Source: Desulfobacterales bacterium
GTDB taxonomy: Bacteria; Desulfobacterota; Desulfobacteria; Desulfobacterales; UBA5852
NCBI GenBank assembly: GCA_963674755.2
Contig: CAXXVS010000001.1
Location: forward strand, 416,001-480,000
Direction of reading: 5' to 3'
Length of the DNA stretch: 64,000 bases
Below, one piece after another: positions 1-16,714 of the stretch (the first letter of the stretch is position 1; every line of letters starts with the position of its first letter). The notes below the pieces were generated by a model that was not told the DNA's origin, did no database searches, and saw only the letters and a list, made by a program, of their open reading frames with translations. Both the position numbers and the translations under genes were made by a program.

Positions 1-21
1 GTGCTGGTTTTCTTCGCCATG
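1..21 (-). CDS. 5' end of a gene running off the left edge (MAKKTS...)
   Basis: Minus strand reads GAGGAGAAGAAACC-ATGGCGAAGAAAACCAGC: strong RBS plus ATG; product unknown. Confidence 0.55.
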
Positions 22-595
22 GTTTCTTCTCCTCGTTACGGTTAGGGGTTGTTGCCATTTGTGAATAGAAGAATAACGAGCTGTCAAAAAATGTCGAGGA
101 GAATTTTCCTTTTTGGGAAGAATTTCTTCCGGCGGCGGGAAGTAATAGCCAATCCTTCCATAAAGGGGCTATCGCCAAAGAGGCATGTTCGGGCGAGCGG
201 CGGCCTGTCGCGGCCGACATTGCGTTTCAAGCCAGGAGGCATGCAAGGGGTAGCGCCGCTGGGCGATAGCCCCGTGTCGGGCCTGTCGTTAAGCCGATCT
301 GGCCGAAGAGGGCGGTCGGATGGCAGAAAAATACGAGACCGGCTCGGAAGGCATGAATCTGGCCGGCCCCATGCGTTTTGCCTGAATTTTTCAGCTATCC
401 AGGCGAAACAGCATGATTCGCTCAAAAGATACTAAAGGACATCATTATGGGTAGCTGAGGATAATTGGTTGGCGTTTTAATTAATCGCTTTCCGTGTCTC
501 TTTATTTCGTATATGGCTGTTCATTAGCTGGAATATCTAAGCGGTAGGTCAACATCAACTGCGGTATGGGCGCATAGCCTGAAAGGGGACAGGAA

Positions 596-853
596 ATGAT
601 GAAAGAAATAATCCGCCAGTACGACGTTGAAGATGGTCAGGGAGATAGATTACAGGTGATTGAATACAAATTAGAAGTTACCCTAAAAGAAGGCATCAGC
701 ACGGCGAACTTTGTTAGTATGAAACGCAATTCGACATTTAAAGACCCTGAATCCAAGTACGCTTTAAGCAATGGTGAACGCGTCATTATGATTGACGATA
801 ATACCTTTCAAACGCAAGATGAACCTGTCCGTCGTTTTTACATTAGGCGGTAA
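596..853 (+). CDS. Hypothetical protein (85 aa)
   Basis: GGGGACAGGA RBS-like sequence, low-GC ORF with protein-like composition. Confidence 0.6.
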   Translation: MMKEIIRQYDVEDGQGDRLQVIEYKLEVTLKEGISTANFVSMKRNSTFKDPESKYALSNGERVIMIDDNTFQTQDEPVRRFYIRR

Positions 854-1149
854 CCTCGCGGTTCGGTTGCGCGGCGGCAATAGGTAGAGTGGCTGCGCCT
901 TGATCAGTTTTAATCCAATTTGCGAAATTTCTTTGTTTTTTCAGCGAGGGCTTGGGAACTTTTTGTTACTTTGCCAAAAGTCAACCTTATTCCATGCTTT
1001 GTCCTGGCAATTTTAGTGACTTTTCGGGATGCGTGCTCCGGTAGCTTATTTACGTTGTCTGTGTAATATGATTTCCCGATTTTTTTTAAAATCCCATCCT
1101 TGATTAATTGGTCAAAATCAATTGGCTTTGCCTCATAGTATGCATTATT

Positions 1150-3039
1150 GATGGCCGCGTAAAAAATCAGGCGGCCAATTTGTAGCTTTCTGGATATCTT
1201 CCCGACGAATTTGTCCAAGCGAAGGCAAATTCCACCAGAGCGGCCTGTAAACGTTCTTTGACACGATAAACAGCAGTCGTAATACGGTGATCAAGGCCCG
1301 GATTACCCTCTGCGGCCTTCATTCTGGCCCTGCGAACCCGGGCCGCCCGTAGCAGATTGAGCCCGGTGGCCTTCATTTTGGCACAGAAGCGCACCGCCGG
1401 CATGCCCCGAACCCGTAGCTTTTTGACCCCGGTGCGCCGATCATATTCGCTCATGGTGGCCTCCACACCGGCCCGCCAGCGATAGGTGTCAATGAAAGCC
1501 TCGCTTTTCTCGGCCTTGCGACGCACCGATAGGCGATATTGCTTTCCGCTGTAGCGCAGATAGTTCTTCTTTTTCCCAGGCTTGACCGGGCAATGACCCG
1601 CATGCGGACATCCCTGGCAAAGCGTGGAATCGAAGGCCGCGCTGTAACAATCGGTTTTCTTCTTGTGCTTCACCTGCTCGGGAACGTGACCCGCCGGACA
1701 GGTCTCGACATAGCCCTTGTCATTAAAGCTAAACGCCGTGAGCGGCTTGGACTCATTGCCCTTCTGGGTCGGGGCGACAAGGTCGACATCGGCCACTTGG
1801 GCCGTCTGGTGGTTACTGTCACTGCCGTACAAAGTGTCGGCGACCAACTGATCGGGCCCCACACCCCGGATCTTGGTATCGGCGATGGCCGGCACCACGG
1901 CCTCCGCATCGCTCTCGCAGGCGGGTTGAACTTCGACATGGGTAATCAGGTTAAGCGCCTGCTCTTTTTCATTGGCCTCTTCACTGCGGCTGAAGCTCTC
2001 CATGATCTGGACCTGATAGCCCTGGCCCTTGTGGCCGCTGTAGGTGGCCTCCGGGTCCGAAGGGTTTTGCAATGAGTCGGAGGGGATCTCGGCCGGCTTC
2101 TTTATCGTTACTTGGGGGGCACCGGCGGCATCGGTCTCGACATGGCATTGATCGGCGAGCACCCGCTGCATGAGCTTGTAGCTGTGCATGAAAGCCACCG
2201 CCGTTTGGTCCTTGAAGCCCTCGATCAGATCGAACAGATCATTGCTGACCCGTTTTAACGTCTTTTCCGATTCCGTGGGTTTAACCAGAGAAAAGGCGGA
2301 TAGGGCCTTCTCACCCCAGTAACGATCAATCACATCAGAAGCGATCGTATCGAACAGCTCTCGGTGGTGGCGTTTGAGATTGACCAGGAACTTGGCGATC
2401 GTGCGGCTGAAAATGGCAATACGGCCCAGCCGGCGCATGTTGGAGCGGATGTGTACCGAGTCGATGCGCTGGTTGGAAGGATCTACACCGAACACTTTGG
2501 CCAATTTGTCGGTGAGCTTTTCGAACATGACCCCGTCAATGCCATTTTCGGCCATCAGCTGGCGGGTCGACCACAGGGTCTTTTCGCTGACGTATTTGGC
2601 CTCGTCGCTTTCTTCAGTGATGTCCAGAGCATAATGCCACTGGAGGTTGTAGGCCAGCTGCTCGACGGCCTCGACATCGTTTAAATCCATGGTTTGCTGG
2701 AAAAGCATCACTCCCAGCAGGGTATGCAGTTCCTTGGTGGGCCGCCCTATGGCTTCAGTGAAGAAGGGTTTTAACAGATCGACGGGAAGTTCTCCGAGCA
2801 GATGCTGGCGGAACAACCCGGGCCAGCCCTCTTCGAGCATCCGGCGCCGTTTGGGGCTCAAATAGGCCCACGGGTCGAAGAGATGTTGCTGTTTGTGGTC
2901 TTTGATGCGAAGCATGCGATCTCCAGGATAACCATCTGTAATTGTTTGGTTTCCTGTAGCATGACGAGAAGAAAATGGCAAGCTGAAATTGGGCGTTTTG
3001 TTAAATAATTCAGGCGGATAGACTTTTTACGATGCCATC
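1150..3039 (-). mobile_element. Insertion sequence, IS1182-like (1890 bp)
   Basis: Terminal IRs GATGGCCGCGTAAAAAATC / GATGGCATCGTAAAAAGTC (16/19 match); ATTATT direct repeats at 1144-1149 and 3040-3045. Confidence 0.9.
1167..2915 (-). CDS. DDE transposase (DUF772-like N-terminus, IS1182-like)
   Basis: GRP, RIDS, SDPEAT, ADTLY, CPAG..CxxCP and YRWRAGVEAT motifs; GGAG RBS before ATG 2915. Confidence 0.9.
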   Translation of the reverse strand: MLRIKDHKQQHLFDPWAYLSPKRRRMLEEGWPGLFRQHLLGELPVDLLKPFFTEAIGRPTKELHTLLGVMLFQQTMDLNDVEAVEQLAYNLQWHYALDITEESDEAKYVSEKTLWSTRQLMAENGIDGVMFEKLTDKLAKVFGVDPSNQRIDSVHIRSNMRRLGRIAIFSRTIAKFLVNLKRHHRELFDTIASDVIDRYWGEKALSAFSLVKPTESEKTLKRVSNDLFDLIEGFKDQTAVAFMHSYKLMQRVLADQCHVETDAAGAPQVTIKKPAEIPSDSLQNPSDPEATYSGHKGQGYQVQIMESFSRSEEANEKEQALNLITHVEVQPACESDAEAVVPAIADTKIRGVGPDQLVADTLYGSDSNHQTAQVADVDLVAPTQKGNESKPLTAFSFNDKGYVETCPAGHVPEQVKHKKKTDCYSAAFDSTLCQGCPHAGHCPVKPGKKKNYLRYSGKQYRLSVRRKAEKSEAFIDTYRWRAGVEATMSEYDRRTGVKKLRVRGMPAVRFCAKMKATGLNLLRAARVRRARMKAAEGNPGLDHRITTAVYRVKERLQAALVEFAFAWTNSSGRYPESYKLAA

Positions 3040-3262
3040 ATTATTAGCTATCGTTGTTATCATTTCTTCCTTGGTCCATTTTTTTGTGTCCTTATCATTC
3101 ATTTTTTCCCTCCACGTTTTAAGGAAGTTCCAGTTTAGCCATTATCTACGATACTGCGTTTGAATACAAATATTAATTTGGAAGCTTTTCTCAGGGTGAT
3201 GTTATTCTTTTCGTATGGCGAGGCGGCGGCGTGCCGCAATCGGCCAGGTATCTAAAGGCCAG

Positions 3263-3370
3263 TCAGCCAGGGGCTGCAACCCAATCAAGCTCAAGGGCGT
3301 TTGCTTGATTCCAATTCTGCCGGTAGGGAGTCCACTGGGGTTCGGTATTAGGGGCGTGGTTGGTTTTCAC
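3263..3370 (-). CDS. Small hypothetical peptide (35 aa, MKTNHAPNTEPQWTPYRQNW...)
   Basis: GGGGGAGG RBS before GTG; co-oriented with neighbouring element genes. Confidence 0.35.
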   Translation of the reverse strand: MKTNHAPNTEPQWTPYRQNWNQANALELDWVAAPG

Positions 3371-3594
3371 TTTCCTCCCCCCTTTTTCCTAAGAAAAATT
3401 ATTGTCAGGAAGGAGGGTTTTTAAGCGGTGCGGGCCGTTAGGTCCGCCGCGCAAAACCCTATTACAAACCCCGAAGGTCCTTCTTGTCTTGGGCCAAGGG
3501 GTTTAGGCACAAGGTAACAAGAAGGCCGAAGGGCGTTTGTGGCGAAGGGTAACTGGTCCATATAGTGGGCCTGGCTATCCGTAGCCTATTAGCT

Positions 3595-3745
3595 CTATTT
3601 TAAATAAAAAAAATATATAATAAATACAGTTAGATGTAAGATATAAAAATGAATTAGCGTATATTTTGCGTTTTATAAGTACCTGATATTACTAACACTA
3701 AAATATACGCAACCGTTTTTTGAAAATATACGCGTATATTTTGAA
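3595..3745. other. Putative replication origin (AT-rich tract plus iterons)
   Basis: AAAATATACGC at 3657-3667(rc), 3700-3710 and twice as the 20-bp palindrome 3723-3742; very AT-rich 3595-3656; directly after the Rep candidate stop. Confidence 0.6.
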
Positions 3746-3756
3746 AACCTACCTCA

Positions 3757-4677
3757 TCACCGTAACTTCAGTCCTGCCAGCACTTCCACCCACTCCTTGT
3801 TATTTTTAACGTAAGGCTGGCGGTTGGAACCCCCTGCGCCGATGTTCCAAATCCCGATTGAAAGGTAGACGTCGTGGTAAGAGCCAAACCGGTGAAGGAC
3901 GCCCTTGTCGCTGAGTTCTCTCAGATAGTTTTTTGCAGTGACTTCCGCCAAGCCGACCGAGCGCGATATTTGGCGAGCAATGCCGTTGAAGCCGCCATCT
4001 AAGATCGCGTGTACTTCCCCTGCTGGTACATTACCCGCAGCTTGGCAAAGCTCCTCACATTTTTTCAGGTAGGATGTTTTTTGCCAAAAAAAGTTCATTA
4101 TATCGTCAAAGTGGATGTAACGTTCGCGCATCTCCGCTACTGGGTTTTGCCCGGTTGGGTTAGAATCTCTATCCCTCTTTTCCATCCATTTCATCGGAAA
4201 TTTTGATGGTTTGGCGTTTTTGATGGCTTGCTTTATCCACTGGCGCTTTTCAGCGTTTTCAAGCCATTTTTGAATGCCCTTCACCACAAAGTCCCTAATA
4301 ACGTGATCCCGGGTTTTGGGGTGAATGGGCATCTTGGGATTGGCGTATTCATCCAGGTATTCGATAAGCCAAACATCAAGTGTGTTGTGGAGTTCCAGAA
4401 TCAGCGGTTTGGGCAAGCCGTGGGGCCTTAGCGGGCGTTCATTAGCGCTTGATTGCGGAGTAATGGGTTGCTCAATATCATCAGCAATTTTTTCCGATGA
4501 CTGCTGCGGCTGCGCGGTAACGGACGGGAGAACGTGTTGTTCGGTGATTGGCTCATCGGTGGTGCTTGGGGGCAGGGTTTCCTTTGACAATAGCTCGGGG
4601 TTTGCTTCGAAAAAAGCTTTGGCCCTGTTTTGCGTCGCTGCCGGTCTTCCACGGCGGGGTGCGTAATCGCTATACAT
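3757..4677 (-). CDS. Putative replication initiator / winged-helix DNA-binding protein (306 aa)
   Basis: C-terminal wHTH-like IARQISRSVGLAEVTAKNYLRELSDKGVL; adjacent iterons. Confidence 0.55.
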   Translation of the reverse strand: MYSDYAPRRGRPAATQNRAKAFFEANPELLSKETLPPSTTDEPITEQHVLPSVTAQPQQSSEKIADDIEQPITPQSSANERPLRPHGLPKPLILELHNTLDVWLIEYLDEYANPKMPIHPKTRDHVIRDFVVKGIQKWLENAEKRQWIKQAIKNAKPSKFPMKWMEKRDRDSNPTGQNPVAEMRERYIHFDDIMNFFWQKTSYLKKCEELCQAAGNVPAGEVHAILDGGFNGIARQISRSVGLAEVTAKNYLRELSDKGVLHRFGSYHDVYLSIGIWNIGAGGSNRQPYVKNNKEWVEVLAGLKLR

Positions 4678-4711
4678 GGTCGTTCCCTCAACGATCTCCC
4701 TATGGTGGATG

Positions 4712-4764
4712 CCGGGGGAAGGGCGGTAGGGAGCCGCCTTTTCGGGAGCTACCCTATCCCCCGG
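4712..4764 (-). ncRNA. C4/CI-like antisense RNA candidate
   Basis: CCGGGGGA/TCCCCCGG closing stem enclosing two hairpins; loop CUCCCUA is complementary to TAGGGAG at 4696-4702 and 5021-5027. Confidence 0.5.
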
Positions 4765-4815
4765 ATAATCAGGTTCCTAAACCATTATTACAAAAAGCAA
4801 GTATCCTTTAAAAAA

Positions 4816-5013
4816 TCACCACTGCATCAGTTCGCGCGGCAGACTGCCTTCGTTTCGTTGGGCATTAGTGACGGCCTGTAATGCCGCGCGGATTTGTTCC
4901 CGCCGGGCGACGGTTTCAGCGGCCTGCAACAGCATCGTCAAGCTATTACGGGCCTTTTCAAGATTATCAACGGGGCCAATAAGGACCTCAGCTTCTTTCG
5001 GCAATTTCACCAT
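4816..5013 (-). CDS. Small hypothetical protein (65 aa)
   Basis: AGGGAG RBS 7 nt before ATG 5013; helical composition. Confidence 0.6.
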   Translation of the reverse strand: MVKLPKEAEVLIGPVDNLEKARNSLTMLLQAAETVARREQIRAALQAVTNAQRNEGSLPRELMQW

Positions 5014-5260
5014 GGTCAATCTCCCTATATTCTGGCCGTAATCTTTTAAGTTTGGTCTGGTTAAGCATCAGAAACCGGCTGTTTTCGGGGCAAAAAGGAA
5101 GCTCAAACTAAAAAGGAAATTTTTTGGGAAGGGCGGCCTGAGAGAATGCAATAGCCCAGGCCGCCCAGGTTGCCCCACGGCGATGGCAGGTCGCCGGGGG
5201 CGGGGCGTATGGTTTACGGGCGGCGCTGGTGATGCCGCCCGTAGGAGGACCGCCCCTGCC

Positions 5261-6247
5261 TTACGATTGGTCTAAAATTTTGGTCAAGCGATCAGCCAAG
5301 ACGGCTTTTTCATCTTTGAAACCCAAGCGGGCCAGGTGGGCGCGGCGGTTATGGGCAACTGTTTCGGCCAGCGCCGCGCGTTCACCAGCCGAATTTTTCA
5401 TCAAGTTTTGGATGCGTCGGCGCTCGGCCAGCGGATCCATGCACTTCCGGCTCCCGGTGCGCGCAAAAACCCGCTGGACCTGGGCTGCGGCTTCGCCAGA
5501 ATTTTCAAACCGGCGGGACTCGGTGCCGCTCGTCGGGGCAAAGCCCAGCCGTTCTAGCGGGCTGCGCTGCCGGGTATTAACCAGCCGGACGCTGGCGGGA
5601 CCTTTAGCGTTCTTGCGGGCGGCGGCAAGCTTGGCTTCAATGGCAGCCAGAGCCTTCCGGCGGCCGTTTTCAAAATGTTGTGACTGTGACATTTCTATAG
5701 CTCCTTTCGTGTTCAAAATTCTTACATCCCTTCCCGCACGGCCACGGCCTTCAGCGATCAGGGCAATGTGGTTAAACCTAAGCTGCGTTTGCAGAGCGTC
5801 ATAAACGGCGTTATTGAAAACGCCCGACTCAAAGATGGTTTCAGCCAAATAGGCCGCGCTGATTTCCGGCAATTCATCGGCTTCAATCGCTCGGATGGTT
5901 TCGGGGTCGGTGACCAGCAAATCACAGGTTAGGTAATCTCCGTCCAGCTTAGGGGTGCCGGCTACGCTGCCCACCGCATGAGCCTTAACCAGCTCCGGCG
6001 TCAACCAGGTGTGGTCGCCCGCTACGATGGGGATGCCCTCAAGGCTGCGCAGGGCCGCCGGGGATGCCATTTCATTACGAGTGACCAGCATGTTGAAGAG
6101 GCCCTGGCCGGGGGGCGGGTCATCCAATTCGAAGCGGTCATAGGGCATGATCCGTTCCGCGAGCACCCGCGCCCGGCAGCGTAGGAAACCGTCAGGGGTT
6201 TTCTCCCAGCGGGGGCGTTCCGCCTTGTTTGCATATGCGATTTTCAT
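5261..6247 (-). CDS. DUF2213 phage head maturation protease/scaffold-like protein
   Basis: TPDGFLRC..ARV, SLEGIPIVAGDH, AVGSV, EISAAY, NHIALIAEGRGRAG..VRI motifs typical of DUF2213. Confidence 0.85.
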   Translation of the reverse strand: MKIAYANKAERPRWEKTPDGFLRCRARVLAERIMPYDRFELDDPPPGQGLFNMLVTRNEMASPAALRSLEGIPIVAGDHTWLTPELVKAHAVGSVAGTPKLDGDYLTCDLLVTDPETIRAIEADELPEISAAYLAETIFESGVFNNAVYDALQTQLRFNHIALIAEGRGRAGRDVRILNTKGAIEMSQSQHFENGRRKALAAIEAKLAAARKNAKGPASVRLVNTRQRSPLERLGFAPTSGTESRRFENSGEAAAQVQRVFARTGSRKCMDPLAERRRIQNLMKNSAGERAALAETVAHNRRAHLARLGFKDEKAVLADRLTKILDQS

Positions 6248-6606
6248 AATGCTTCTTCCTCCTTGGTTTCTTTGGGCATTGGGTACCGCTGCCGCAGGTC
6301 TTCAAGATCCCGCATCGGAATGGGGTGCGCGGGCGGCTTAGGCGGATCATCGCTAAAGTCCGCCCGTAACCGTTCCAGCATCACCTTCGCGCGGTCATCC
6401 ATCAGCTTGGGCAGGGGTGGGGGCGGTGTCCAAAGGCCGCGCTCCATCGCCCAAATTTCACGCAAGAGGGCATCCCGCTGGGCGGTATCCGTCACTACAC
6501 CCAGCAGCATTTCAACGCGGGTGCGATTGACGGTTAGGATGGCGACGGCCGGGGTTTTGCCTTTGGCCTCCTGTTCAAGCCATTCAATTCTTCTTTTCAT
6601 ATTCAT
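6244..6606 (-). CDS. Hypothetical phage-like protein (120 aa)
   Basis: Begins MNMKRRIEWLE; overlaps both neighbours by 4 nt (translational coupling). Confidence 0.7.
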   Translation of the reverse strand: MNMKRRIEWLEQEAKGKTPAVAILTVNRTRVEMLLGVVTDTAQRDALLREIWAMERGLWTPPPPLPKLMDDRAKVMLERLRADFSDDPPKPPAHPIPMRDLEDLRQRYPMPKETKEEEAL

Positions 6607-6818
6607 CCCTTATCCTCCCTTTGCAGGAATTGATCTTCCAAAGCGGTGATACGATCTTCAAGATCCCCGCGCTCAATGATGCCTTTCAGGATGTTGGCCA
6701 GGTAAGCCAGTTTGGAAGCCATGGCAGGTTCTATGGGGCCATTGCCCGGGTCGGCGCGGTTGATAAGCCCGGCCACGTAGCGCCGAATATCCGCAATGCT
6801 TTTCAGGCGACGAGCCAT
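6603..6818 (-). CDS. Hypothetical phage-like protein (71 aa), possibly packaging-related
   Basis: AGGAGG RBS; C-terminal DLEDRITALE coiled coil. Confidence 0.7.
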   Translation of the reverse strand: MARRLKSIADIRRYVAGLINRADPGNGPIEPAMASKLAYLANILKGIIERGDLEDRITALEDQFLQREDKG

Positions 6819-6914
6819 TACCTCCTAACCCCCATAGGAAAGTCTATTGAAATTAGAGAGATAACGCTTTTGTGATACTGAAAAGCGGCCCATTTGAGTG
6901 CGAAAAAAGGGCAT

Positions 6915-7169
6915 TTAGCGGCCTTGCTCCGGCTGCGCCAGATATGCGCTGATCAATTCCTCAATCTTCGCAGAAGCCGTTATCTCATCTTCCAGGCAGC
7001 GTACCTTGAACCGCTTCCACAGGGCGGCATCCACCTGTATCCCAATGTTGGTTCGAACCTGCTGGGGATACCGTTGCTTGAAATCGGCAATTTTTTCTTC
7101 GATTTCCCGCAACGCCTTTTGGCGGCCTCGCTCGTGGGCATCAGAGTTTTCCATCGCTTCCTCCATCAT
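6915..7169 (-). CDS. Ribbon-helix-helix (ParG/CopG-like) DNA-binding protein
   Basis: NIGIQVDAALWKRFKVRCLEDEITASAKIEELISAYL beta-alpha-alpha pattern. Confidence 0.7.
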   Translation of the reverse strand: MMEEAMENSDAHERGRQKALREIEEKIADFKQRYPQQVRTNIGIQVDAALWKRFKVRCLEDEITASAKIEELISAYLAQPEQGR

Positions 7170-7501
7170 ATATATTGGGTTATTTATAGAATATAGAATA
7201 TAATATATAATGTTACAGCTAAAGTAAAGCTCTTGGATGATATTAATAACAATTTAGGGTATTTGGATTCTTCTCCGGCTGTGGGCCGCTGTGGTCGCCA
7301 TAGTAAGGCGTGGGTTTTAGGGGTAGGTAGGGTGGCTATGCGGAGGCGAGCAGCCTGTGGCGGGCTAATGGGACAGTCACATGGGGAATCAGGGGGAGAG
7401 GTGGGGGCCAGGGGCGGCCCCCTGTACCGTTCAGTTCGGTAGGTCCTTCAGATCTTGCAGCAGCCCGGTCAATTCGAAGGGCATAGGATGATTAATAGCG
7501 T

Positions 7502-7636
7502 TTACTTGGCCTTGACCAGTGCGAGGCCTTCACGGATGCCGCTTTCATCGATGCACTGCTGGACATCCGGTGTGATATTGATGAAGGCCCGCCGGGTGGG
7601 CACGTTGAACCACAATTCCTTGCGATAGCTTTTCAT
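7502..7636 (-). pseudogene. yjbQ: N-terminal 44 aa of YjbQ (UPF0047), truncated
   Basis: [22 protein letters not shown]...[10 protein letters not shown] then KAK* where homologs continue NAMHITAS. Confidence 0.85.
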
Positions 7637-7670
7637 TGCCAGCTCTCTTTGCCGATCGGCATTTAGGGCT

Positions 7671-8636
7671 TCAGCGGAAAATGTTGATTTCCCGGATCGC
7701 CCGATCCAGGAGACCACCCACCTCGCGGGCCCACGCGAACGATTGCGCCTTACGGGAAACATTGGTCATTTCATCGAAAGTGGCGGCGCTGATGTTGAGT
7801 TTTTTCCAGCCGTCCTGGCCAAAGGTGATCCGCGCACTTTCCGGATAGATGTCGAACAGGCACAGGGTTTCACCGGACGGGTTCCCGACCGTCTCGTATT
7901 CCAGCCCAACCCCCTTGTTGCGGTAGCGCAGGTGAAGACGTTTGTTCAGCTGCAGGACGTTGACCAATTTGGAATGAAGATAGACCAGGGCGCCGGACAC
8001 CTGCCGCGAATGGTGTCGCAGTTGCGACAGAAAAGTCTCCACCGTCAATTGGCGGGTGCGATCATCGCGGACGTGTTGGGAGGCGTTTTGGACGAATTCA
8101 ATCTGCGCCTCTTCGATGCTCCGGTCCGCCAGTCGATCATCGATGAGGGCATAAAGGGCGCTGCCTATATTAAAGAAGAGCTTTTTGCCCATCATCTGAT
8201 CGAATTCGGACAATATCTTATTGCCGTCCTTACCGGTCAAATCCTCCATTGAAAACCGGATGACGGGTTCCGCCGCGGAGAGATCATGCTGACTGAGAAG
8301 GGTGCAATACAGGGCCATATACTGTCCGGTGGACAGGAAAATCCAGGGGCAATTCAGACGGAAACAGTATTCCAGGTACTGGTTGATATCTTCTTCCAGG
8401 GTGTCGGCCCAAGATTTGACTTCTACGATGACCGAGGGTTTGTCATCTTTGAAAAGAACGATATCGAGCCCCTGGTGGTCGAAATCCATGTCCCGCAGCA
8501 GGTTCCAGCCGATCGTCTGCAGGAGGGGCACGATGATTTTGCTTTTGATGTTTTCTTTGTTGCCTTTGCGGCCGGCGATGATATGGGCTTCGATATCGAT
8601 GGATTTCAGATGGGAACGCAGTCTTTGAAAACTCAT
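7671..8636 (-). CDS. HsdR_N-like PD-(D/E)xK restriction-nuclease-fold protein
   Basis: [45 protein letters not shown] motifs; start MSFQ at 8636. Confidence 0.7.
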
Positions 8637-9020
8637 GGTTTCCGATCCCCCGGGAGGTGGGTGGCGGTGCCTTGACAGACGCCGCCGCGACCTGGGCCGG
8701 CTCACAGGTGTCTGGCGTCCGGCCAATGCCATCCGTTACGCTGAATGGGTGAAGGTTTTTTTGCCCCATGTGCTGTTTATCGGTGGCCGGAAGAGCCCCC
8801 TTTCCTCCGGTCATCCAGCGGGCAGGTTCAATCTATCTCGCTATGATAAATCGATTTTTGTTTTCATAGCACATAACCCTCAGGGTGAAAAGAGACGGCC
8901 GGAAGCGTAGATGGGAGACCGCCCGATCGGGCAGGGGGAGAAAGTGCGCCGTGGGATGGAACCGGAATCCCCGATCGAACAGGGCCTCCGTCGATAGAGC
9001 TTTTTTAAACGGCGCCGAAT

Positions 9021-9064
9021 GGGCGGGGGACACCGTCTTGGGGCATTGCCGGTGTCGCCCGCCT
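9021..9064 (-). terminator. Hairpin terminator after cheW
   Basis: GGCGGGGGACACCG...CGGTGTCGCCCGCC stem. Confidence 0.45.
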
Positions 9065-9090
9065 GGTTGCGCCTATGACCCTGCTGAAGA

Positions 9091-9564
9091 TCAGGCGGCT
9101 TGTTCGGTTTGGATAATAGCCTCGCTGGTCATTACGCGGTCGATATCGAGCAGGATTTTGACCCGGCCATCCATATTGGCCATACCGAGGATGTAATCGG
9201 TTTCCACTTTGGTGGCGAAGCCGGGGGCTTCCGCGATATCCTCGGTCTTGATGTTCATCACTTCGGATACGGCATCCACAACGATTCCGACCTGGATGGT
9301 GGTCGCCTCGCCATGGATTTCGACCACGATAATGCAGGTGCGGTCAGTATAGTCGGCGGCCGCCATTTCGAATCGCAGCCGCAGGTCGGATACCGGGATA
9401 ACCTTACCTCGCAGGTTGATCACGCCTTTGACGTATTCAGGGGTATGGGGCACGGAGGTGATCGGCAGCATGCCGATGATTTCCTTCACTTTAAGCAAGG
9501 CAATGCCGTATTCCTCATTGGCCAGTGTAAAGGTGAGATATTTTCCTGCCAGTGAATCGTTCAT
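9091..9564 (-). CDS. cheW: Chemotaxis protein CheW
   Basis: KYLTFTL.NEEYGI, VKGVINLRGKVIPV, GIVVDAVSEV. Confidence 0.95.
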   Translation of the reverse strand: MNDSLAGKYLTFTLANEEYGIALLKVKEIIGMLPITSVPHTPEYVKGVINLRGKVIPVSDLRLRFEMAAADYTDRTCIIVVEIHGEATTIQVGIVVDAVSEVMNIKTEDIAEAPGFATKVETDYILGMANMDGRVKILLDIDRVMTSEAIIQTEQAA

Positions 9565-9686
9565 CTGCTGTTCCTTCCATCCATGGATGGTTTCAGGGGA
9601 GATCGGTTTAGACCGGCTCTCCCCTGACCGTGTTGTTGATTAATTGGTGGCGGTCCATAAATGGTAGATTTTGGTTCCCAGCCGCA

Positions 9687-11279
9687 TTAGAAGTCCTGGA
9701 AGGCACCCCCGTCATTGTCATCAAAAGGGATGATTTTTTCAGGCGACGCGCCCTTGGCCGCCGCAGCCAAAGCAACGGCCTTGGGCCTGGCGCCGGCCCT
9801 TTTGGGCACCGCTGTTTTCCTTTGACGGTGAGGGGGGGCCGAGCTTGAACCCGCGCCTTCGACAAGTTCCACCAAGCCCTGGACCATATGTTTCATCTCT
9901 TCGGCCTGCGCATTGAGCTCCTGGGAGGCCGACGCGGATTCTTCGGCACTGGCGGCATTTTGCTGGACGACCTTGTCCATTTCCGTGACGGCGTTGTTGA
10001 TTTGCTCGACGCCCTGGGCCTGTTCGGTCGAGGCCGCTGCGATTTCACCGACGATATCGCCTACCTTGGCGGCCGAGGTGGCCACTTCCGAAAAAGCCCC
10101 GTTCGCCTTGTCCACCAGTTCGGAACCATCCCGCACCCGTTTGGCGGTATCTTCAATCAGCTCGGAAGTGTTTTTGGCGGCTTCGGCGGCGCGAATGGCC
10201 AAGTTGCGGACCTCATCCGCAACAACGGCAAAACCGGCCCCGGCCTCACCGGCCCGGGCCGCTTCCACGGCGGCGTTCAGGGCCAGCAGGTTGGTCTGGA
10301 AGGCGATCTCGTCAATCGTTTTGACAATTTTTTGTGTTTCTTCGCTGGCCTTGGTAATTTGCCCCATGGATTCCGTCAAATCCGTCATTTCACTCGTGGC
10401 CTGTTCGACCACCTGGTTGGCGTCTTTCATCAGTTGATTGGCCTGACCGGCATTGTCCGCATTTTGCTGGGTCATGGAGGCCATTTCCTCCAGAGAAGCG
10501 GACGTCTCCTCGATGGCGGCGGCCTGCTCGGAAGCCCCTTCGGCCAGGGACTGGCTTGATGACGATACCTGATTGGCGGCCGAGGCAATGCCGTCGGAGC
10601 CGGTGTTCATGGTTTCGATCAGCCTGTTGATGGGCTGGGCGATCGAGCGGGCCATAAGCCAGGCCAGTCCAATGCCGGCGATGGCAATGAGGGCGATGGT
10701 AATAAATATCGGGGTGAATACGCTGGAAATTTCTTTTTCCACGTCGTCGACATAAATGCCGGAGCCGATAACCCATTGCCACTGGGGAAACAGTTTGACA
10801 TAGGAAATCTTCGGCTGCGGCTTGTCGACACCCGGTTTGGGCCACATGTAGTCAACGAATCCCCCACCGTCTTTGCGGCACACATTGACCATTTCCACGA
10901 ACAGCTGTTTGCCGTTCGGATCTTTGGACCCTGAAAGGTCCTGGCCGTTCAGTGCGGGCTTCATGGGGTGCATGACCATGCGGGGGCCCATATCGTTGAT
11001 CCAGAAGTAGTCATTGCCTTCATAGCGCATGGCCTCCACGGCTTTGATCGCCTGATCCTGGGCTTGCGCGGGGGTCATGAGACCTTTCGCCGACTGATCG
11101 GCGTAATAGGCCACCACGCTGTAGGCGGCCTCCACGAGGTGCCGGGTTTTGACATATTTGGCGTCGTACATGTTGTCTCTGATTTTGGGATACAGCCAAC
11201 CGAAAATGGCGCTGAACGCGACCACTAGGGTAACCCCTAAAATCAGAATCCTGGTCGATAGTTTGAATTTGTTTAACAT
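9687..11279 (-). CDS. Methyl-accepting chemotaxis protein with single Cache_2 sensor
   Basis: Two TM helices, YFWIND/MHP/DPNGK Cache motifs, [34 protein letters not shown]. Confidence 0.95.
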
Positions 11280-11734
11280 TTGGTAGCCTCCCCGCTAAAT
11301 GGAAGGTCCTCTTGATGGACCTATTCGAATCCTGCCCTGCCGCCCTGAACAGCTGCCGGCTTCCAGGGATGCGGCCTGGGTCTTAGGAGATGTATCGGGT
11401 TGATTTAAGTAGAACTTTAACATTTTCGAGCGTATGGTCAGGATCGATGCGCGCCATTCGTTTTGGGAGATCCTGCCGATCTTGACCTCGGTCAATCGCT
11501 AAAGATGGCATGCGGGAAGGATGCTGTTTCAAGATCTGTCTCCGTCTATTGACCCTTTGATTAGATTATGTCATATAGTTTCAGTGGATTACGATGGCCT
11601 TAGCTGCTTCAAGGCATTTTCGAACGAATCCGTCGCTAAACCTGCCGGCGAGAAATACCGATACCCTTGCAACGACGGAGGGCTTGTTTACGCCTCATTG
11701 ACCACGTGCATCAAGATCATGCGGGAAGGGACAT

Positions 11735-12862
11735 ATGGATAAGGTTTTGATTGTCGACAGTAATGCCGATTTTCTCAAGTCGCTCAAAGAAGGTCTCGAC
11801 AAGATGCACCAGTTTGAGGTGCTGGTTGCCAGCGACGGCGAAGAGGCTATCCGGATTCTTTCCAATGACAAAGTGGCGGTGCTTGTCACGGACATTAACA
11901 TGCCCAGGTTCGATGGCCTGGAGCTTTTGGCTTTCATGACCCAGGAGCATCCCAATACGCCCTGCGTCGTGATGACCGATTACGGCAAGCCCTGGTTTCG
12001 CAAACGGATGGACCAGCAGGAGGTGCTTTACCATCTTGAAAAGCCCTTTGAAATCGGTGCATTGGCTTCCGCTATTTTTGTGGGGCTCAACTTGCGGGAT
12101 GAAGGCATGAATTACAAGGGCATGACCATGGCCAGCATTCTGCCGTTGATTGAAATCGAGCAGAAAACTTGCCGCATGGAAGTCAAATCGGCCGGCAAGG
12201 GCAAGGGCTATCTCTATTTTGACGAAGGGGTTCTGATCGATGCCCATTTGAAAGGCAAGACAGGGGAGAAGGCCGCCCTGGCCATATCCGAATGGGATCG
12301 CATTACGATAAAATTTTCCGATCTACCACGCCGTCGCACGCGCACCCGCGTCAAAACCCACTTGATGGACATGGCCGGTGCTACCTGGATGCGCGAAGAG
12401 ACCGAAGCCCTGGGCGAGGAAGAATCGACCGGCGAGGGCATGGTTCTGGAAACATCGACGAGCCAGACGCTGCTGGACGAGGAGACCAGCCGCAGCATAC
12501 TTTTGCACTCGGTCGAAGACTTCAAATCCATCAAGGGCTACCAGGCGGTAGCAATTCTGGATGCCGATGGGGACATTCTGGCCGCTGATATCCTGGACGG
12601 CCAGGTTGAACTGGAGAGGCTGGCCATCGGCATCAGCAGCATTTTCTCCGTCAGCGAGGAGACGACGCGGCAGATTGGTTTCGATCGCTGCCAAGCGCTT
12701 ACACTGCATACCCGCAATGGCGTTATTCTTCTCGTAACGTCGGATCTTGAGATGGCGGCCGGACTTCGACTGATGGGCGTTACAAAACCTGACGGGAATT
12801 GGTTTTACATGAAAGTTCAGCTGGAGAATTTATTCCCGAAACTTGTTGCCGGGTTGTCCTAG
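11735..12862 (+). CDS. Response regulator: REC plus DUF4388-like plus Roadblock/LC7-like domain
   Basis: VLIVD, TDINMP, EKPF; EIEQKTC..GYLYFDEG.LIDA; C-terminal FKSIKGYQAVAILDADG. Confidence 0.8.
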   Translation: MDKVLIVDSNADFLKSLKEGLDKMHQFEVLVASDGEEAIRILSNDKVAVLVTDINMPRFDGLELLAFMTQEHPNTPCVVMTDYGKPWFRKRMDQQEVLYHLEKPFEIGALASAIFVGLNLRDEGMNYKGMTMASILPLIEIEQKTCRMEVKSAGKGKGYLYFDEGVLIDAHLKGKTGEKAALAISEWDRITIKFSDLPRRRTRTRVKTHLMDMAGATWMREETEALGEEESTGEGMVLETSTSQTLLDEETSRSILLHSVEDFKSIKGYQAVAILDADGDILAADILDGQVELERLAIGISSIFSVSEETTRQIGFDRCQALTLHTRNGVILLVTSDLEMAAGLRLMGVTKPDGNWFYMKVQLENLFPKLVAGLS

Positions 12863-12937
12863 ATCGCCTTGCTCCGCAAGACTTCCCGCCACCTATCCCA
12901 TGTTTTTTTTCACCCTAGAATTGAAGGAGAAAAAGCC

Positions 12938-13501
12938 ATGCGCATTGCATATGCTCTTTGTGCATTGTTGGCCCTGATTTTCATAGCGGGAACGGTTGCC
13001 GCGCAGGATCTGGAGAAAGCATTTTTAGGGCTCCCCTGGGGAGCGGATATCCGCAACCAGAAAGGCTATGAACTGCTGTATGAAAAAGAGGACCTGCGCT
13101 ATTACATCCAGCCGGGAATCCACCGAGTCGTCGATGGATTTAACATTGCGCGGGTGATTTACGGAACCCAGGACTATCGCTTCTACGCCGCTTTCCTGTT
13201 GATCGAGTCCATGGAAACCTTCGATGGTATCAAAGCCTATATGGGAAAACGTTACGGATTTCCCAAAACGACCTGGTCGGTGGCCAATGAGCAAACCACC
13301 TATACGTGGATTTACAAGCCTATTCGCATGAAGCTCAAATTCTACCAGAAGGATGGGCGGATGAAACTGGCCTTTTACTACACGCCCATTGCCGACCAGG
13401 TGAACGAAAAGGCGGCCGAAGCCTCTCAGCAGAAATCGATCGAATTCCTACCGATTGAGCGGGACAAAAATCCGATGAATATGCCGCTGCTTGAATTTTA
13501 G
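12938..13501 (+). CDS. Secreted hypothetical protein
   Basis: AAGGAG RBS, signal peptide, FLGLPWG motif. Confidence 0.75.
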   Translation: MRIAYALCALLALIFIAGTVAAQDLEKAFLGLPWGADIRNQKGYELLYEKEDLRYYIQPGIHRVVDGFNIARVIYGTQDYRFYAAFLLIESMETFDGIKAYMGKRYGFPKTTWSVANEQTTYTWIYKPIRMKLKFYQKDGRMKLAFYYTPIADQVNEKAAEASQQKSIEFLPIERDKNPMNMPLLEF

Positions 13502-13603
13502 CCTGAAGGTGCGCCCGGTGGCCATGAAGCGCTGGCAATGGTGGCTATCCTAGCAGGACCGCCGGGCTTTGAGTCGGAATCTTTTGGCATGAGGAGGTGT
13601 GCC

Positions 13604-13702
13604 ATGACGAGAAACGATCATAACCACCCAAGGGATCCCTGGCTGGGTGTTTTTTGTCCGGAAGACCGCTGCCACGCTAAGCCGCCCACCCATATGGTCT
13701 GA
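13604..13702 (+). CDS. Small protein (32 aa) with WLGVFCPEDRC motif
   Basis: GAGGAGG RBS; own intrinsic terminator at 13745-13773. Confidence 0.55.
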   Translation: MTRNDHNHPRDPWLGVFCPEDRCHAKPPTHMV

Positions 13703-13744
13703 TGTTTCGCACGGGTCGGGCCATGCCCCCTGATTGGAACCTGC

Positions 13745-13773
13745 AAGCCGGCGGTAGATCCGCCGGCTTTTTT
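13745..13773 (+). terminator. Rho-independent terminator
   Basis: AAGCCGGCGG-tagat-CCGCCGGCTT followed by T run. Confidence 0.8.
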
Positions 13774-13812
13774 GTGGACCCTCCGGGTTTCTTCCATCGC
13801 CATGAATAAAAT

Positions 13813-13841
13813 TTGACAAAATCCGAGCAACCCGTTATGGT
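13813..13841 (+). promoter_or_regulatory. Sigma70 promoter candidate for aor
   Basis: TTGACA-17 nt-TATGGT. Confidence 0.5.
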
Positions 13842-14014
13842 CTTTATGTGTTAGGTCTCATTATTTCGATAGCCGACCGGGTTTTCTTCTGCACGCCATA
13901 TGGCACTTCTAAAATTGACCAGGTTGTTCCGCTGACATCCTACAGGAGGGTCGGTCGGCTATCGTTCCCTCCCGATTTTATTTATTTCCTTGTGAGGTCA
14001 TAGGGGAGGATCGC

Positions 14015-15982
14015 ATGGGCCATGCCAGCATGGGTAAGATCATGTGGGTCGATCTTAGCCAGGGCAGCATCCGGATTGAGCAGATCCCCGACCATATCTA
14101 TGAGACGGTTTTATCCGGTGTCGGTCTTGCGGTTCAGTTGCTCTACGAGCGCATTCCTGCCGGAGCCGACCCGCTGGGCCCGGACAATGTGCTCGGTTTC
14201 GTATCCGGTTTGCTGACGGGAACAGGGAGCCTGTTTACCGGTCGCTGGATGGTGACCGGGAAATCACCCCTGACCGGAGGATGGGGCGACGCCAACTGCG
14301 GCGGGAATTTTTCGCCTGCGATCAAGCGCTGCGGGGTCGACGGCATTTTTTTTACGGGCATCAGCCCGCGGCCGGTCTATTTCTGGGCTGATAAAGGCCG
14401 CGCCGAACTACGGGACGCCGCGGCGTTGTGGGGCTGCGACACTTACGAGACCGAAGCGCGTCTACGGCAGCAAAACGGCGGACGACGCCTTCGCGTGGCC
14501 TGCATCGGTCCGGCAGGTGAACACCAGTCCCTCATTGCGGGCGTTGCCAATGATGGGGGACGTATGGCCGCCCGGTCAGGCCTGGGGGCGGTAATGGGGG
14601 CCAAGCATCTCAAGGCGGTTGCTTTGGGAGGCGGTCAGCGTATACCGGTCTACGACCGGAAGTCCGTCAAGGCCTTGAGTGCCAGGTGTAACGAGACGGT
14701 TCAGTTCCATCCCCCATTTTTAAACGGCATATTGATGGCCTATACCGGCAGTCTCATGCGCCTCCTGCCCATGCAGATGGCCTTCGACGGCATGTTGTAC
14801 AAACTTATGCTGGACAAATACGGCACGGCCAGCCTCAACCAGCTCCTGGTGGAGGTGGGGGATACGCCTGTTAAAAACTGGCGTGGCAGCAATGAAGATT
14901 TTCCGCGGGAGCTTTCCGCCCATTTGAGTCCCGAAGTGTTTACGGACACGATGGTGGTCAAATATCATTGTTACAGCTGCCCCCTGGGGTGCGGCGGGCT
15001 GATGGCCCAGAACAGCCCCTGGCCCGGTGCGCACAAACCCGAGTACGAATCCGTCATGGCGCTGGGCGGCTTGCTGTTGAACGATGACGCCGAGAGCATT
15101 TACAAGCTTAACGATATGCTCAACCGGGCGGGCATGGATACGATCTCGGCCGGTGGCACGGTGGCGTTTGCCATGGAGTGTTTTGAAAAAGGCCTTCTCA
15201 CCCGGGAAGATACCGACGGTCTGGATCTCTCCTGGGGCAACAGCGACGCTGTCATTGCCCTGGTGGAGAAGATGATCCGGCGTGAAGGCATCGGTGACTT
15301 ACTGGCGGACGGGTCCCGGGCGGCGGCCCGCAAAATCGGCCCACCGTCCGATCGACTGGCCATGCATGCCGGCGGGCAGGAGTTGGGCATGCACGATGGG
15401 CGTTACGACCCTGGGTTTGCGCTGCATTACAGCGCCGAACCGACCCCGGGCCGGCATACCATCGGTTCCCAGATGTATTATGAAATGTTTCGGCTGTGGG
15501 AACGAATTCCCGATTTGCCGGATGTGGACCTGATCTACCGCAAGGCCAGCAAATACGACGTCCAGGAAGAAAAGATCGCGGCCGCGGCCGCCTGCAGCCG
15601 TTTCATGAATGTCCTCAACGGCAGCGGCACCTGCCTTTTTGGCGCTTTTTTGGGTGTAGAACGGCTGCCGTTGTTCGAATGGCTCAATGCCGCCACAGGA
15701 TGGCGTCGTTCTCCCCAAGCGTATCTGCACATCGGTGAACGTATTCAGAATCTGAAACAGGCCTTCAATATACGACACGGCATTGAACCTAAATCGTTCA
15801 AGGCCAACCCGCGCACTCTGGGGAAACCGCCCCAGGAGAACGGTGCCAATGCAGGGCGAAGTGTCGCGATCGAAGCGCTGATGCGTGCCTACTGGAAGCA
15901 CTTCGGATGGGACGAGGAGAGCGGCAAACCCGGTACGGCCCATCTCAAACGATGGGGCATTACCCCTTATGGCAGCAGATGA
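14015..15982 (+). CDS. aor: Tungsten aldehyde:ferredoxin oxidoreductase family protein
   Basis: KSPLTGGWGDANCGG, IGPAGE, AARSGLGAVMGAKHLKA, CYSCPLGC, PEYE, GMDTISAG. Confidence 0.92.
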   Translation: MGHASMGKIMWVDLSQGSIRIEQIPDHIYETVLSGVGLAVQLLYERIPAGADPLGPDNVLGFVSGLLTGTGSLFTGRWMVTGKSPLTGGWGDANCGGNFSPAIKRCGVDGIFFTGISPRPVYFWADKGRAELRDAAALWGCDTYETEARLRQQNGGRRLRVACIGPAGEHQSLIAGVANDGGRMAARSGLGAVMGAKHLKAVALGGGQRIPVYDRKSVKALSARCNETVQFHPPFLNGILMAYTGSLMRLLPMQMAFDGMLYKLMLDKYGTASLNQLLVEVGDTPVKNWRGSNEDFPRELSAHLSPEVFTDTMVVKYHCYSCPLGCGGLMAQNSPWPGAHKPEYESVMALGGLLLNDDAESIYKLNDMLNRAGMDTISAGGTVAFAMECFEKGLLTREDTDGLDLSWGNSDAVIALVEKMIRREGIGDLLADGSRAAARKIGPPSDRLAMHAGGQELGMHDGRYDPGFALHYSAEPTPGRHTIGSQMYYEMFRLWERIPDLPDVDLIYRKASKYDVQEEKIAAAAACSRFMNVLNGSGTCLFGAFLGVERLPLFEWLNAATGWRRSPQAYLHIGERIQNLKQAFNIRHGIEPKSFKANPRTLGKPPQENGANAGRSVAIEALMRAYWKHFGWDEESGKPGTAHLKRWGITPYGSR

Positions 15983-15989
15983 GGCGTCG

Positions 15990-16469
15990 ATGAGCTACCG
16001 GATTACAGATCGATGCGTCGGCTGCGGCATGTGCCGCAAGATCTGTCCGGTAGATTGCATCGCCGGGGAACCCCGCAAGCGGCACAAAGTGGCATCCGAC
16101 CGTTGTATCGACTGCGGGGCCTGCGGCCGGATTTGCCCCCACAATGCCGTCCAGGACCCTTTGGGGCGACCCTGTGAACGCATTCGTCGCCGGGCCCTGT
16201 ATTGGGGAAAGCCTCTCTTTGACTATTCCCTGTGTATGTCCTGCCGGGTATGCATCGATGCCTGTCCGGCCGCCTGTTTGGCGGTTACCTATACGGAAGA
16301 CACCCAAAACAAGAAAGCCTATCCGTATTTATCGGCCCCCGCAGATTGTGTCGCCTGCCGGTTTTGCATGCTGGAATGCCCGGTGGAGGCGGTCTTCATG
16401 AAAGCCGAGGGCGACATGAGTGATGATGAGAAAAAATCGCTGGACGGGCCATTTACATCCGGTGTATGA
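15990..16469 (+). CDS. Polyferredoxin (four CxxCxxCxxxCP motifs)
   Basis: Four [4Fe-4S] motifs; follows aor. Confidence 0.9.
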   Translation: MSYRITDRCVGCGMCRKICPVDCIAGEPRKRHKVASDRCIDCGACGRICPHNAVQDPLGRPCERIRRRALYWGKPLFDYSLCMSCRVCIDACPAACLAVTYTEDTQNKKAYPYLSAPADCVACRFCMLECPVEAVFMKAEGDMSDDEKKSLDGPFTSGV

Positions 16470-16714
16470 CGGCCCTTAGTGCAGGGGCGCAGGGCTCCAC
16501 GGCATATTTGGAGGCAGATTCGCTGACGCTGGGCAACTGGTTTCCCCGGCCGGTGTTCATTGGAGGACACCACGGGCCCCAACCGCAAAAGCCGGGTCAA
16601 TCAGGGCAAGAACACGCGGAGAGGTGTGACCGGTGGACGGCTCGCAGATGCCGGGGCGTCCTGTGCCCCTTTTTACCAGGGAGGTTTCATCGAAGAGGGA
16701 GCCCCCACTCTATT

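Follow-up and report, generated by a model that had tools for sequence, protein, structure and literature searches.

The first 7.5 kb of a 64,000-nucleotide stretch from a Desulfobacterales bacterium (contig CAXXVS010000001.1, positions 416,001 to 480,000; hereafter the window) contain the right part of an integrated element that interrupts the gene yjbQ. This element is likely a phage satellite. Its central gene (5261..6247, minus strand) encodes a DUF2213 head protease fused to a short, basic, helical tail, and comparison with phage homologues indicates that the tail is rebuilt from phage parts, not truncated. On balance we favour the reading that this shortened protease-scaffold would enter the prohead of a DUF2213-type myophage and compete there with the phage's own protease-scaffold; we infer that the element may parasitise such phages or interfere with them. 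Throughout, L followed by a number designates a locus, and coordinates without such a prefix are positions in the window.

A protease-scaffold with a short tail

The protein matches PF09979 (E 2.3e-30, 106 bits against a cut-off of 22) and the head maturation protease family phrog_530 of PHROGs (E 2.6e-38). Its protease domain comprises residues 1-179, with H79, S130, H160 and R170 conserved: among 40 aligned sequences the last three are invariant and H79 is nearly so, and with the help of a structural model we infer catalytic roles for these residues. In the model, residues 11-170 have a predicted local confidence (pLDDT) above 90, and the best fold matches are the protease of Epstein-Barr virus (EBV), a herpesvirus, and T4 gp21.

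A first homologue search returned 43 proteins, 38 of which could be split by a tail-type pattern: 27 have a long acidic tail (205-230 aa), ten have a short basic tail (68-199 aa), and one is a cut protein. The long forms lie between a head-morphogenesis gene and the cement and capsid genes, on myophage contigs of up to 54-69 kb, and they precede the cement and major capsid genes in 24 of the 25 phage loci with a DUF2213 match (there are 27 phage loci in total, 17 of them obtained by way of the capsid gene, and several are duplicates). The element's tail, by comparison, is basic and 149 aa long, lacks the long acidic scaffold, and has no cement or capsid gene beside it. Context is available for three of the ten short forms, and these three sit in the elements; some of the remaining seven are perhaps shortened by contig ends.

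Over the protease domain, the protein is 47-65% identical to the proteases of one family of myophages, its nearest relatives being uncultured phages, and the short forms branch among phage proteins in the tree. The short-tail proteases form two groups in a careful tree and are joined in 9% of bootstrap trees; a single origin is not rejected by an approximately unbiased test (p-AU 0.49 on a 32-row subset). Among named phages and plasmids there is no close relative of the protease and no match covering 80% of the protein; the best tblastn match among named phages is the head scaffold protein of Pam3 (36.6%). We take cyanophage Pam3, which has a T=7 head and a 54.5 kb genome according to PMC9942802, and the related DUF2213 myophages as the candidate helper type. 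The capsid protein of the candidate helpers matches PDB 8hdt (E 2.4e-28). A first-pass annotation of the window had already tied a satellite to DUF2213-type phages, and the tie is strengthened both by this protease identity and by a sister element that holds a baseplate hub of the same myophage family (see below).

Tail motifs shared with phage scaffolds and head proteins

The phage scaffolds terminate in R-x-x-x-E/Q-R-L-G-F. A motif of this RxxxERLGF type stands at residues 228-236 of the element's protein, where it aligns with the phage scaffold ends, including the Asn site that precedes them, and a second version stands near residues 301-309. The same pattern is found at the end of 13 phage scaffolds and of one 77-aa phage open reading frame (ORF), and it has no match in 27 non-phage control loci, which are nearly twice the size of the phage loci.

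At residues 192-206 the protein also carries FENGRRKALAAIEAK, a helix with the pattern FENGRxKA. This FENGR helix is present in nine of the ten short-tail homologues and in none of the 28 others. In its strict form, the pattern picks out seven small head-region ORFs in the 27 phage loci and nothing in the 27 control loci; a loose form gives 12 matches in the phage loci, the controls having been scored with the strict pattern only. In the small phage ORFs the helix is likely a loading tag for internal head proteins. By position, F-E/Q-N-G-R-x-K-A helices occur in unrelated small phage ORFs at L016:9837, L017:9581, L018:11922 and 12292, and L030:7952 and 9473, with further ORFs at L100:2659, L102:8634 and 9471, L104:6110 and L029:1980; they often have a second hydrophobic-x-Asn site after the helix. 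The ORF at L017:8311-8544 ends in the scaffold terminal motif, not the FENGR helix, and the cement proteins at L016:11186, L028:11213 and L030:11243 start with F-x-N-G-F/Y-R-G, a sequence similar to the tag's beginning.

The tails further suggest a rule for cleavage, namely after Asn in a hydrophobic-x-Asn context. Of the Asn residues in short tails, 66 of 104 have a hydrophobic residue two places before them, and of those in long tails 255 of 354; the background is 0.24-0.25. These fractions overstate the certainty, related sequences not being independent. In the element's protein the count is six of eight. Asp, Glu and Gln show no hydrophobic bias two places earlier in the tails, and many phage tags and portal N-termini show hydrophobic-x-Asn sites.

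A second protein of the element, a ribbon-helix-helix (RHH) regulator of 79-84 aa (6915..7169, minus strand), has an N-terminal variant of FENGRxKA. It matches PF23807 with E 7.8e-6 and 26.5 bits, against a cut-off of 27, and its ratio of nonsynonymous to synonymous substitution rates (dN/dS) is 0.15. A profile of 11 phage tags, run over all six frames of the host genome (13.1 million positions), puts the element's protease first and its RHH protein third. The RHH proteins of the two sister elements, L013 and L023, score 17.7 and 13.4 with this profile, as against -0.8 and 2.3 for those of two related recombinase islands without DUF2213; in a third such island, the RHH protein has no tag by eye.

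Extent of the element and its integration site

In the host genome (G000:C1) the element occupies 412,612-423,511, that is, 10,900 bp, or 9,008 bp without an insertion sequence (IS). Its GC content is 53%, versus about 58% for the host genome. The first-pass annotation had placed it at 1..7510, which describes its right part; the element continues 3.4 kb to the left of the window, and an extension in that direction, which the annotation had proposed as a check, reaches both a recombinase and the 3' part of yjbQ. Besides the protease and RHH genes, the features are:

L001:16318-16611, minus strand: left junction, with the 3' piece of host yjbQ
L001:16571-18202, minus strand: large serine recombinase, 543 aa, left of the window
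L001:18218-18634, minus strand: intact second yjbQ, 138 aa, left of the window and directly ahead of the serine recombinase
L001:18779-19468, minus strand: tyrosine recombinase, 229 aa, left of the window
1..7513: right 7.5 kb of the element
1..20, minus strand: Lys/Ala-rich small protein, 100 aa, beginning at the window's left end and then leaving the window
596..853, plus strand: 85-aa cargo gene without a family match
910..3120, minus strand: small cargo gene, 98 codons without the IS, which splits it (pieces 910-1148 and about 3041-3105)
1149..3040, minus strand: IS1182-like insertion sequence, 1,892 bp, with a 604-aa transposase and a TTAT target duplication
3590..3747: AT-rich presumed origin with four exact 11-bp repeats (at 3657, 3700, 3723 and 3732)
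3757..4677, minus strand: presumed replication initiator, 306 aa, so called from its position before the repeats and from sister genes in the same slot
4698..4764, minus strand: int-alpA structured RNA (RF02996), on the sense strand ahead of the 306-aa gene
4816..5013, minus strand: 65-aa helical protein, 61% identical to its L013 counterpart
6244..6606, minus strand: 120-aa protein with an RIxxLE start, as in the partner gene of related islands
6603..6818, minus strand: 71-aa two-helix protein of a large unnamed family of integrase-primase islands
7502..7636, minus strand: 5' part of the host yjbQ, interrupted by the element, with the right junction at a 2-bp AA core (7512-7513)

The truncated yjbQ, the RHH gene, the two coupled small genes, the DUF2213 and 65-aa genes, the 306-aa gene and the AT-rich repeats are all present where the annotation had placed them. 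Its assignment of every gene to the minus strand holds for the core genes but not for the 85-aa cargo gene. The small cargo genes it had listed are present as well, but it had overlooked the IS that splits one of them; this IS has three further copies in the host genome, two of these identical, and is no part of the ancestral element.

Between the junctions, library searches and the reading of the flank found no terminase, portal, capsid or tail module, in agreement with the annotation, which had seen no capsid, portal or tail genes: the left flank holds the two recombinases, the intact yjbQ and the yjbQ 3' part. A full head and tail module in that flank was one of two findings that would have gone against the annotation's reading; the other, a gene order without counterpart elsewhere, is not seen either (see below). 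Transfer genes are likewise lacking within the element. PADLOC matched none of nine element proteins and gave one weak match among four proteins of the sister elements, and promoter and terminator scans stayed at chance level.

The complete yjbQ inside the element shares 83-86% DNA identity with the two host pieces; with identity no higher than this, it is a spare copy and not a target duplication. An intact spare copy stands directly ahead of the recombinase in every one of the three elements (in the sisters at L013:15853-16269 and L023:7141-7557), and its dN/dS of 0.04 against L013 indicates strong selection. An island at L112 carries a related recombinase at yjbQ, with no adjoining spare copy in the stretch read. 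The frame of the serine recombinase crosses the left junction (L001:16571-16611) and stops within the host yjbQ in a different frame, so that the C-terminus of the enzyme would differ between the integrated and the excised state.

Two blocks with no or weak coding character, 3216-3367 and 4639-5133, are conserved with L013 (77% and 70%) and are candidates for a regulatory RNA or a packaging site. Outside the element, just beyond the right junction and upstream of yjbQ (7671-8732), there is a protein of 353 aa whose N-terminal domain is that of a type I restriction R protein, and a repeated palindromic element of about 100 bp, with many copies in the genome, follows yjbQ at L001:15920-16310.

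Sister elements and distribution

The annotation had proposed a search for the same gene order in other Desulfobacterota, and the order does recur, at the same insertion point, in two sister elements. L013 comes from Desulfosarcina widdelii; L023 matches, at 99.9% identity, part of a genome (G866) from the same order as the window's host. Both were obtained in a scan with the protease alignment, which gave 18 loci from three collections (L019 and L024-L026 were left out as apparent duplicates, and L021 and L022, at 27-29%, lie outside the gene-by-gene reading). All three elements interrupt yjbQ at the identical AA dinucleotide, as serine recombinases cut, and they are similar in size: 9,008 bp for the window's element without its IS, 9,173 bp for L013 and 8,697 bp for L023. 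From the RHH gene to the 65-aa gene, the order in L013 is that of the window, and a 103-aa protein of similar character fills the slot of the 100-aa Lys/Ala-rich protein. Compared with L013, dN/dS is 0.04-0.21 in all eight shared genes tested, 0.08 in the protease domain and 0.22 in the protease tail; the shared genes are under purifying selection.

Besides the RHH and protease genes, L023 contains a 71-aa-like gene, one of 101 aa and a baseplate hub of 299 aa. This hub (L023:2939-3838) is full-length, matches phrog_196 (E 4.5e-35), and is 32-42% identical to the hubs of the candidate-helper family. It recalls BhuB of PLE11 and may indicate tail manipulation.

The element family is rare. The serine recombinase occurs in three of 401 genomes of the class, one of the three being the L112 island with other cargo, and the DUF2213 protease in nine of 401 genomes of the phylum, full-length only in the window's host, and in one of 61 relatives. 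In ten genomes with a close tyrosine recombinase, the fetched stretches hold no DUF2213 or 71-aa gene, and the tyrosine recombinase gave no match when viral contigs were scanned with it. Two compact islands, L043:9340-17849 and L051:7293-18335, have the same tyrosine recombinase, an untagged RHH gene and a serine recombinase, with an initiator-like gene and a Cys/His helix-turn-helix (HTH) gene in place of DUF2213; they are possibly further satellite types.

A presumed, swappable replication slot

In all three elements, an int-alpA RNA stands just upstream of a large gene, which is followed by short repeats. The RNA scores 51.8, 45.5 and 37.8 bits in the three elements, against a gathering cut-off of 35.8, and its folding energy by itself is ordinary (z -1.0). 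It corresponds to the antisense-like cloverleaf of the first-pass annotation: this is a known Rfam family, and it lies on the sense strand ahead of the 306-aa gene. PMC5737381, which is taken as the source of the family, does not mention int-alpA (RF02996) in the available part of its main text.

The gene in the slot differs among the elements, with 306 aa in the window, 290 aa in L013 and 508 aa in L023. The L013 gene has a weak O-like match (E 0.003); the L023 gene, with tandem direct repeats behind it, is 27% identical to a RepA-like gene in L043 that Pfam assigns to the RPA initiators. The presumed origin of the window's element has 28% GC over 3560-3760, and its exact 11-mer occurs four times at 3657-3742, two copies per strand, and five times genome-wide; none of 100 shuffles attains four copies. 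We read the slot as a swappable module of initiator and origin, for the 306-aa protein by position only. The Atlas matches of this protein all fall under 0.85, and the annotation's winged-helix call for it found no library support.

The coupled 71-aa and 120-aa pair

The 71-aa, 120-aa and DUF2213 genes are coupled through 4-nt overlaps, and dN/dS is 0.06 for the 71-aa gene and 0.21 for the 120-aa gene. The 71-aa family has 424 representatives and is present in 18 of 401 genomes of the phylum. In 11 loci read, its gene usually comes after a primase-like gene and before a small coupled gene with an R-x-x-x-L-E start; a Pfam primase domain was found in four of the five primase-like genes scanned, and one member is a DUF5681 protein. 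By context only, the 71-aa protein is small-terminase-like, that is, it takes the place that the small terminase (TerS) has in phage-inducible chromosomal islands (PICIs).

Searches lend the 71-aa protein no support as a TerS. No match to a named TerS was found in 122 family members, PHROGs returned eight unnamed families with one member each, and PDB sequences gave coiled-coil matches only. Foldseek against viral and PDB structures gave nothing at E 0.001, and the Atlas matches are unnamed clusters, the nearest named one being DUF8136 at 0.82. Apart from the elements, minimal integrase-HTH-primase islands at L076, L078, L082, L083 and L084 have at their end a gene of the 71-aa family, followed by a small coupled one, and hold no head gene; they form a common, unnamed, satellite-like class in the phylum.

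A proposed course of events

Infection by a helper would probably trigger excision and replication from the repeat cluster. Excision would restore yjbQ, and the spare copy would cover the integrated state. The tail motifs would then, as seems likely, address the protein to the helper's prohead, with RxxxERLGF as a coat-binding end and FENGRxKA as a loading tag of the T4 kind. In the helper, protease and scaffold form a single chain. A competing scaffold would therefore have to supply an enzyme itself, which would explain why the strongly conserved catalytic domain is kept; we lean slightly towards the view that the protein brings its protease for this purpose and would cut after hydrophobic-x-Asn.

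The later steps are more tentative. The short tail might alter head curvature or stoichiometry and so yield small or spoiled heads that exclude the 54-69 kb helper genome, a step we are a little inclined to doubt. Perhaps the 71-aa and 120-aa pair steers the helper terminase to the element's DNA, though we would not count on it, and it seems unlikely, if conceivable, that the tagged RHH protein is carried along inside the particle to act once it reaches the next cell. Similarly doubtful is the full proposal, namely a new satellite family in which the helper's protease-scaffold has been rebuilt into a self-maturing mini-scaffold with a stolen loading tag, reshaping the head and shipping its own regulator.

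Weighing the evidence

Several results weigh against entry into the prohead in competition with the phage protein. The fold matches of the protease model have E-values of 0.002-0.02, outside the tool's 0.001 mark. In the tag profile, the second rank goes to an unrelated open frame, and the ranking is partly circular: the phage tags had been gathered with a pattern noticed beforehand in the element. The 306-aa protein has no replication-family match; nor does the 71-aa protein match a small terminase in sequence or fold. Terminase, portal, capsid, cement and sheath queries from related phages found no helper head or tail gene in the host genome, a simple CRISPR finder gave no arrays, and there is no spacer-like link to the phage loci. 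Among the joints listed for four public runs, used as contigs, there is no excised circle, empty site or raised depth, although run contigs drop rare forms and the absence of circles cannot be shown in this way. The elements with known context are three independent ones only. Finally, for a phage of 54-69 kb we estimate by a one-third rule that a T=4 head would hold roughly 18-23 kb, about twice the element, so that the element's size by itself is no argument for small heads; dimers, T=3 heads and full-head concatemers are each possible.

Two other observations belong to the search for a helper and its traces. A joint at 6614-17572 was considered as an empty site and rejected, with unknown letters between its ends and many diverged yjbQ contigs alongside. 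Non-coding DNA that could serve as a packaging site is not shared between the three elements and the 27 phage loci, save for a 31-bp match inside the recombinase gene. The candidate helpers themselves carry a transferase-like cluster between head and neck genes (L016:13592-17491, L018:7290-11286, L028:13821-16662 and L030:14116-18114), whose genes look by eye like glycosyl-, methyl- and sulfotransferases.

How else might these genes be explained? The element could be a satellite that travels as a concatemer in normal-sized heads, its protease-tail fusion being an internal passenger that aids maturation or RHH delivery while head size is unchanged. A head of 54-69 kb would be filled by six to seven copies of 9 kb, the FENGR helix is a mark of accessory small phage proteins and not of scaffolds, and two kinds of satellite, VEIMEs (integrative mobile elements encapsidated in virions) and PICMIs (minimalist chromosomal islands that phages can induce), do travel as concatemers in full heads, which also counts against competition for the prohead. 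However, a passenger needs neither a doubled scaffold terminal motif nor a second protease beside the helper's, and the tail is under purifying selection; we give this explanation a small but appreciable probability. A somewhat fainter possibility is an anti-phage island, spread by another route or rarely: its captured protease would cleave head proteins of the helper too soon, or would serve as a dominant-negative decoy. The retained catalytic residues suit such a role, as do address motifs that would bring the enzyme to its targets; the head-remodelling genes of satellites work mainly as interference, and the listed joints of the four runs lend no support to packaging. On the other hand, the protease gene is coupled to a pair typical of integrase-primase islands, and the replication slot is kept, with its int-alpA RNA and repeats, while its gene is swapped. 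The L023 hub, the tightly similar sizes and the lack of PADLOC matches for the nine proteins also speak against an island devoted to defence.

A decayed prophage that has retained a protease gene by chance is largely refuted and very improbable. It is true that the protease and the L023 hub are phage late genes and that the protease domain branches inside a phage family, but there are no head or tail remnants between the junctions, three elements of similar size and order occupy one site, dN/dS is far below 1, and the tail is rebuilt, not truncated. Improbable too, if slightly less so, is a small plasmid-like integrative element unconnected with phages, in which the protease serves another purpose. 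The yjbQ recombinase is indeed shared with the L112 island and its unrelated cargo, the tyrosine recombinase with ten other genomes without nearby DUF2213, and the L023 replication gene is RepA-like; yet the protease domain, both tail motifs and the L023 hub all come from one phage family, and the element has no transfer genes.

Comparison with known satellites

We compared the element with PICIs according to the SatelliteFinder definition (PMC10085698). Like a PICI, it integrates site-specifically, here by a large serine recombinase with the same AA core in three elements; it has about 9 kb (the PICI median is 9.5 kb), a presumed replication slot, a gene related to heads and, by position only, a possible small terminase, and it lacks a tail or lysis set. 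Unlike a PICI, it has an RHH/Arc-like gene as its only regulator, with no AlpA, MerR or Stl match in Pfam, PHROGs or NCBIfam; it has no primase, only the presumed initiator and repeats (weakly O-like in L013, RepA-like by way of L043 in L023), and no recognised TerS. Library searches found no capsid, Cpm or Sid homologue, the DUF2213 fusion being a candidate analogue. Tail, holin, portal and head-tail genes are absent from the window's element, and L023 has one baseplate hub. The serine recombinase at the far end, the spare target gene and the placement of all core genes on one strand also differ. A strict assignment to the PICIs fails on the regulator. Nor does any element protein match Psu, Delta, Sid, Ash or the alpha primase-helicase of P4-like satellites, and the capsid, portal, terminase and head-tail connector genes of capsid-forming PICIs (cf-PICIs) were not found, only the protease, so that assignment to either group fails as well.

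The PICI-like elements (PLEs) of Vibrio cholerae are about twice as long as our element, and to our knowledge no homology between the two is to be expected. Two papers describe a large serine recombinase in PLEs (PMC9618062) and a hub gene in some members (PMC12987554), as in L023; the PLE protein TcaP, unlike ours, is an external scaffold. PICMIs and VEIMEs resemble the element in being small, with few genes and no capsid gene, and PICMI/VEIME-like integrase-HTH-primase islands of the phylum also hold the 71-aa and 120-aa pair. PICMIs, however, lie beside fis and have no head-remodelling genes as defined in PMC10803314, whereas the element lies in yjbQ and carries a head gene. For VEIMEs, the accessible text of PMC9618062 mentions serine proteases of possible head function and describes no shortened protease-scaffold.

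A functional parallel in satellites is offered by CpmB and Rcm of the Staphylococcus PICIs (SaPIs, the S. aureus pathogenicity islands), which the available parts of PMC10945586 and PMC12409344 describe as alternative internal scaffolds: short helical proteins that mimic the coat-binding end of the helper scaffold. No protease domain is described for them there, whereas the protein of the element is truly homologous to the protease-scaffold of the helper and has retained the enzyme. For our element, small heads are a prediction. Among phages, T4 gp21 and the capsid-targeting sequences of T4 internal proteins share with the element the protease fold, a short tag on unrelated small proteins and a hydrophobic-x-P1 rule (PMC9026906). 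In the element's family, though, P1 would be Asn and not Glu, the tag is a longer helix, and its user would be a parasite, not the phage.

Significance

We found neither this element nor any satellite whose DUF2213 protein is shortened described in the literature, in a search that mostly did not cover subscription papers and did not cover supplements; VEIME datasets may hold similar genes. The head-hijacking proteins described for satellites are enzyme-less scaffolds or extra coat proteins. To the question of how a helper with a fused protease-scaffold could be taken over, the element suggests a concrete answer, in which the residues and motifs involved can be named. It also provides a testable cleavage rule and a loading tag for a little-studied protease family, together with three natural attachment-site pairs for a serine recombinase. 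More broadly, it points to satellites of a phage family of sulfate reducers' relatives that are likely overlooked by standard PICI and P4 models. If the proposal is true, this would be a satellite that exploits the internal-protein loading route of its helper, and its Asn-specific cleavage code would be legible in the sequence.

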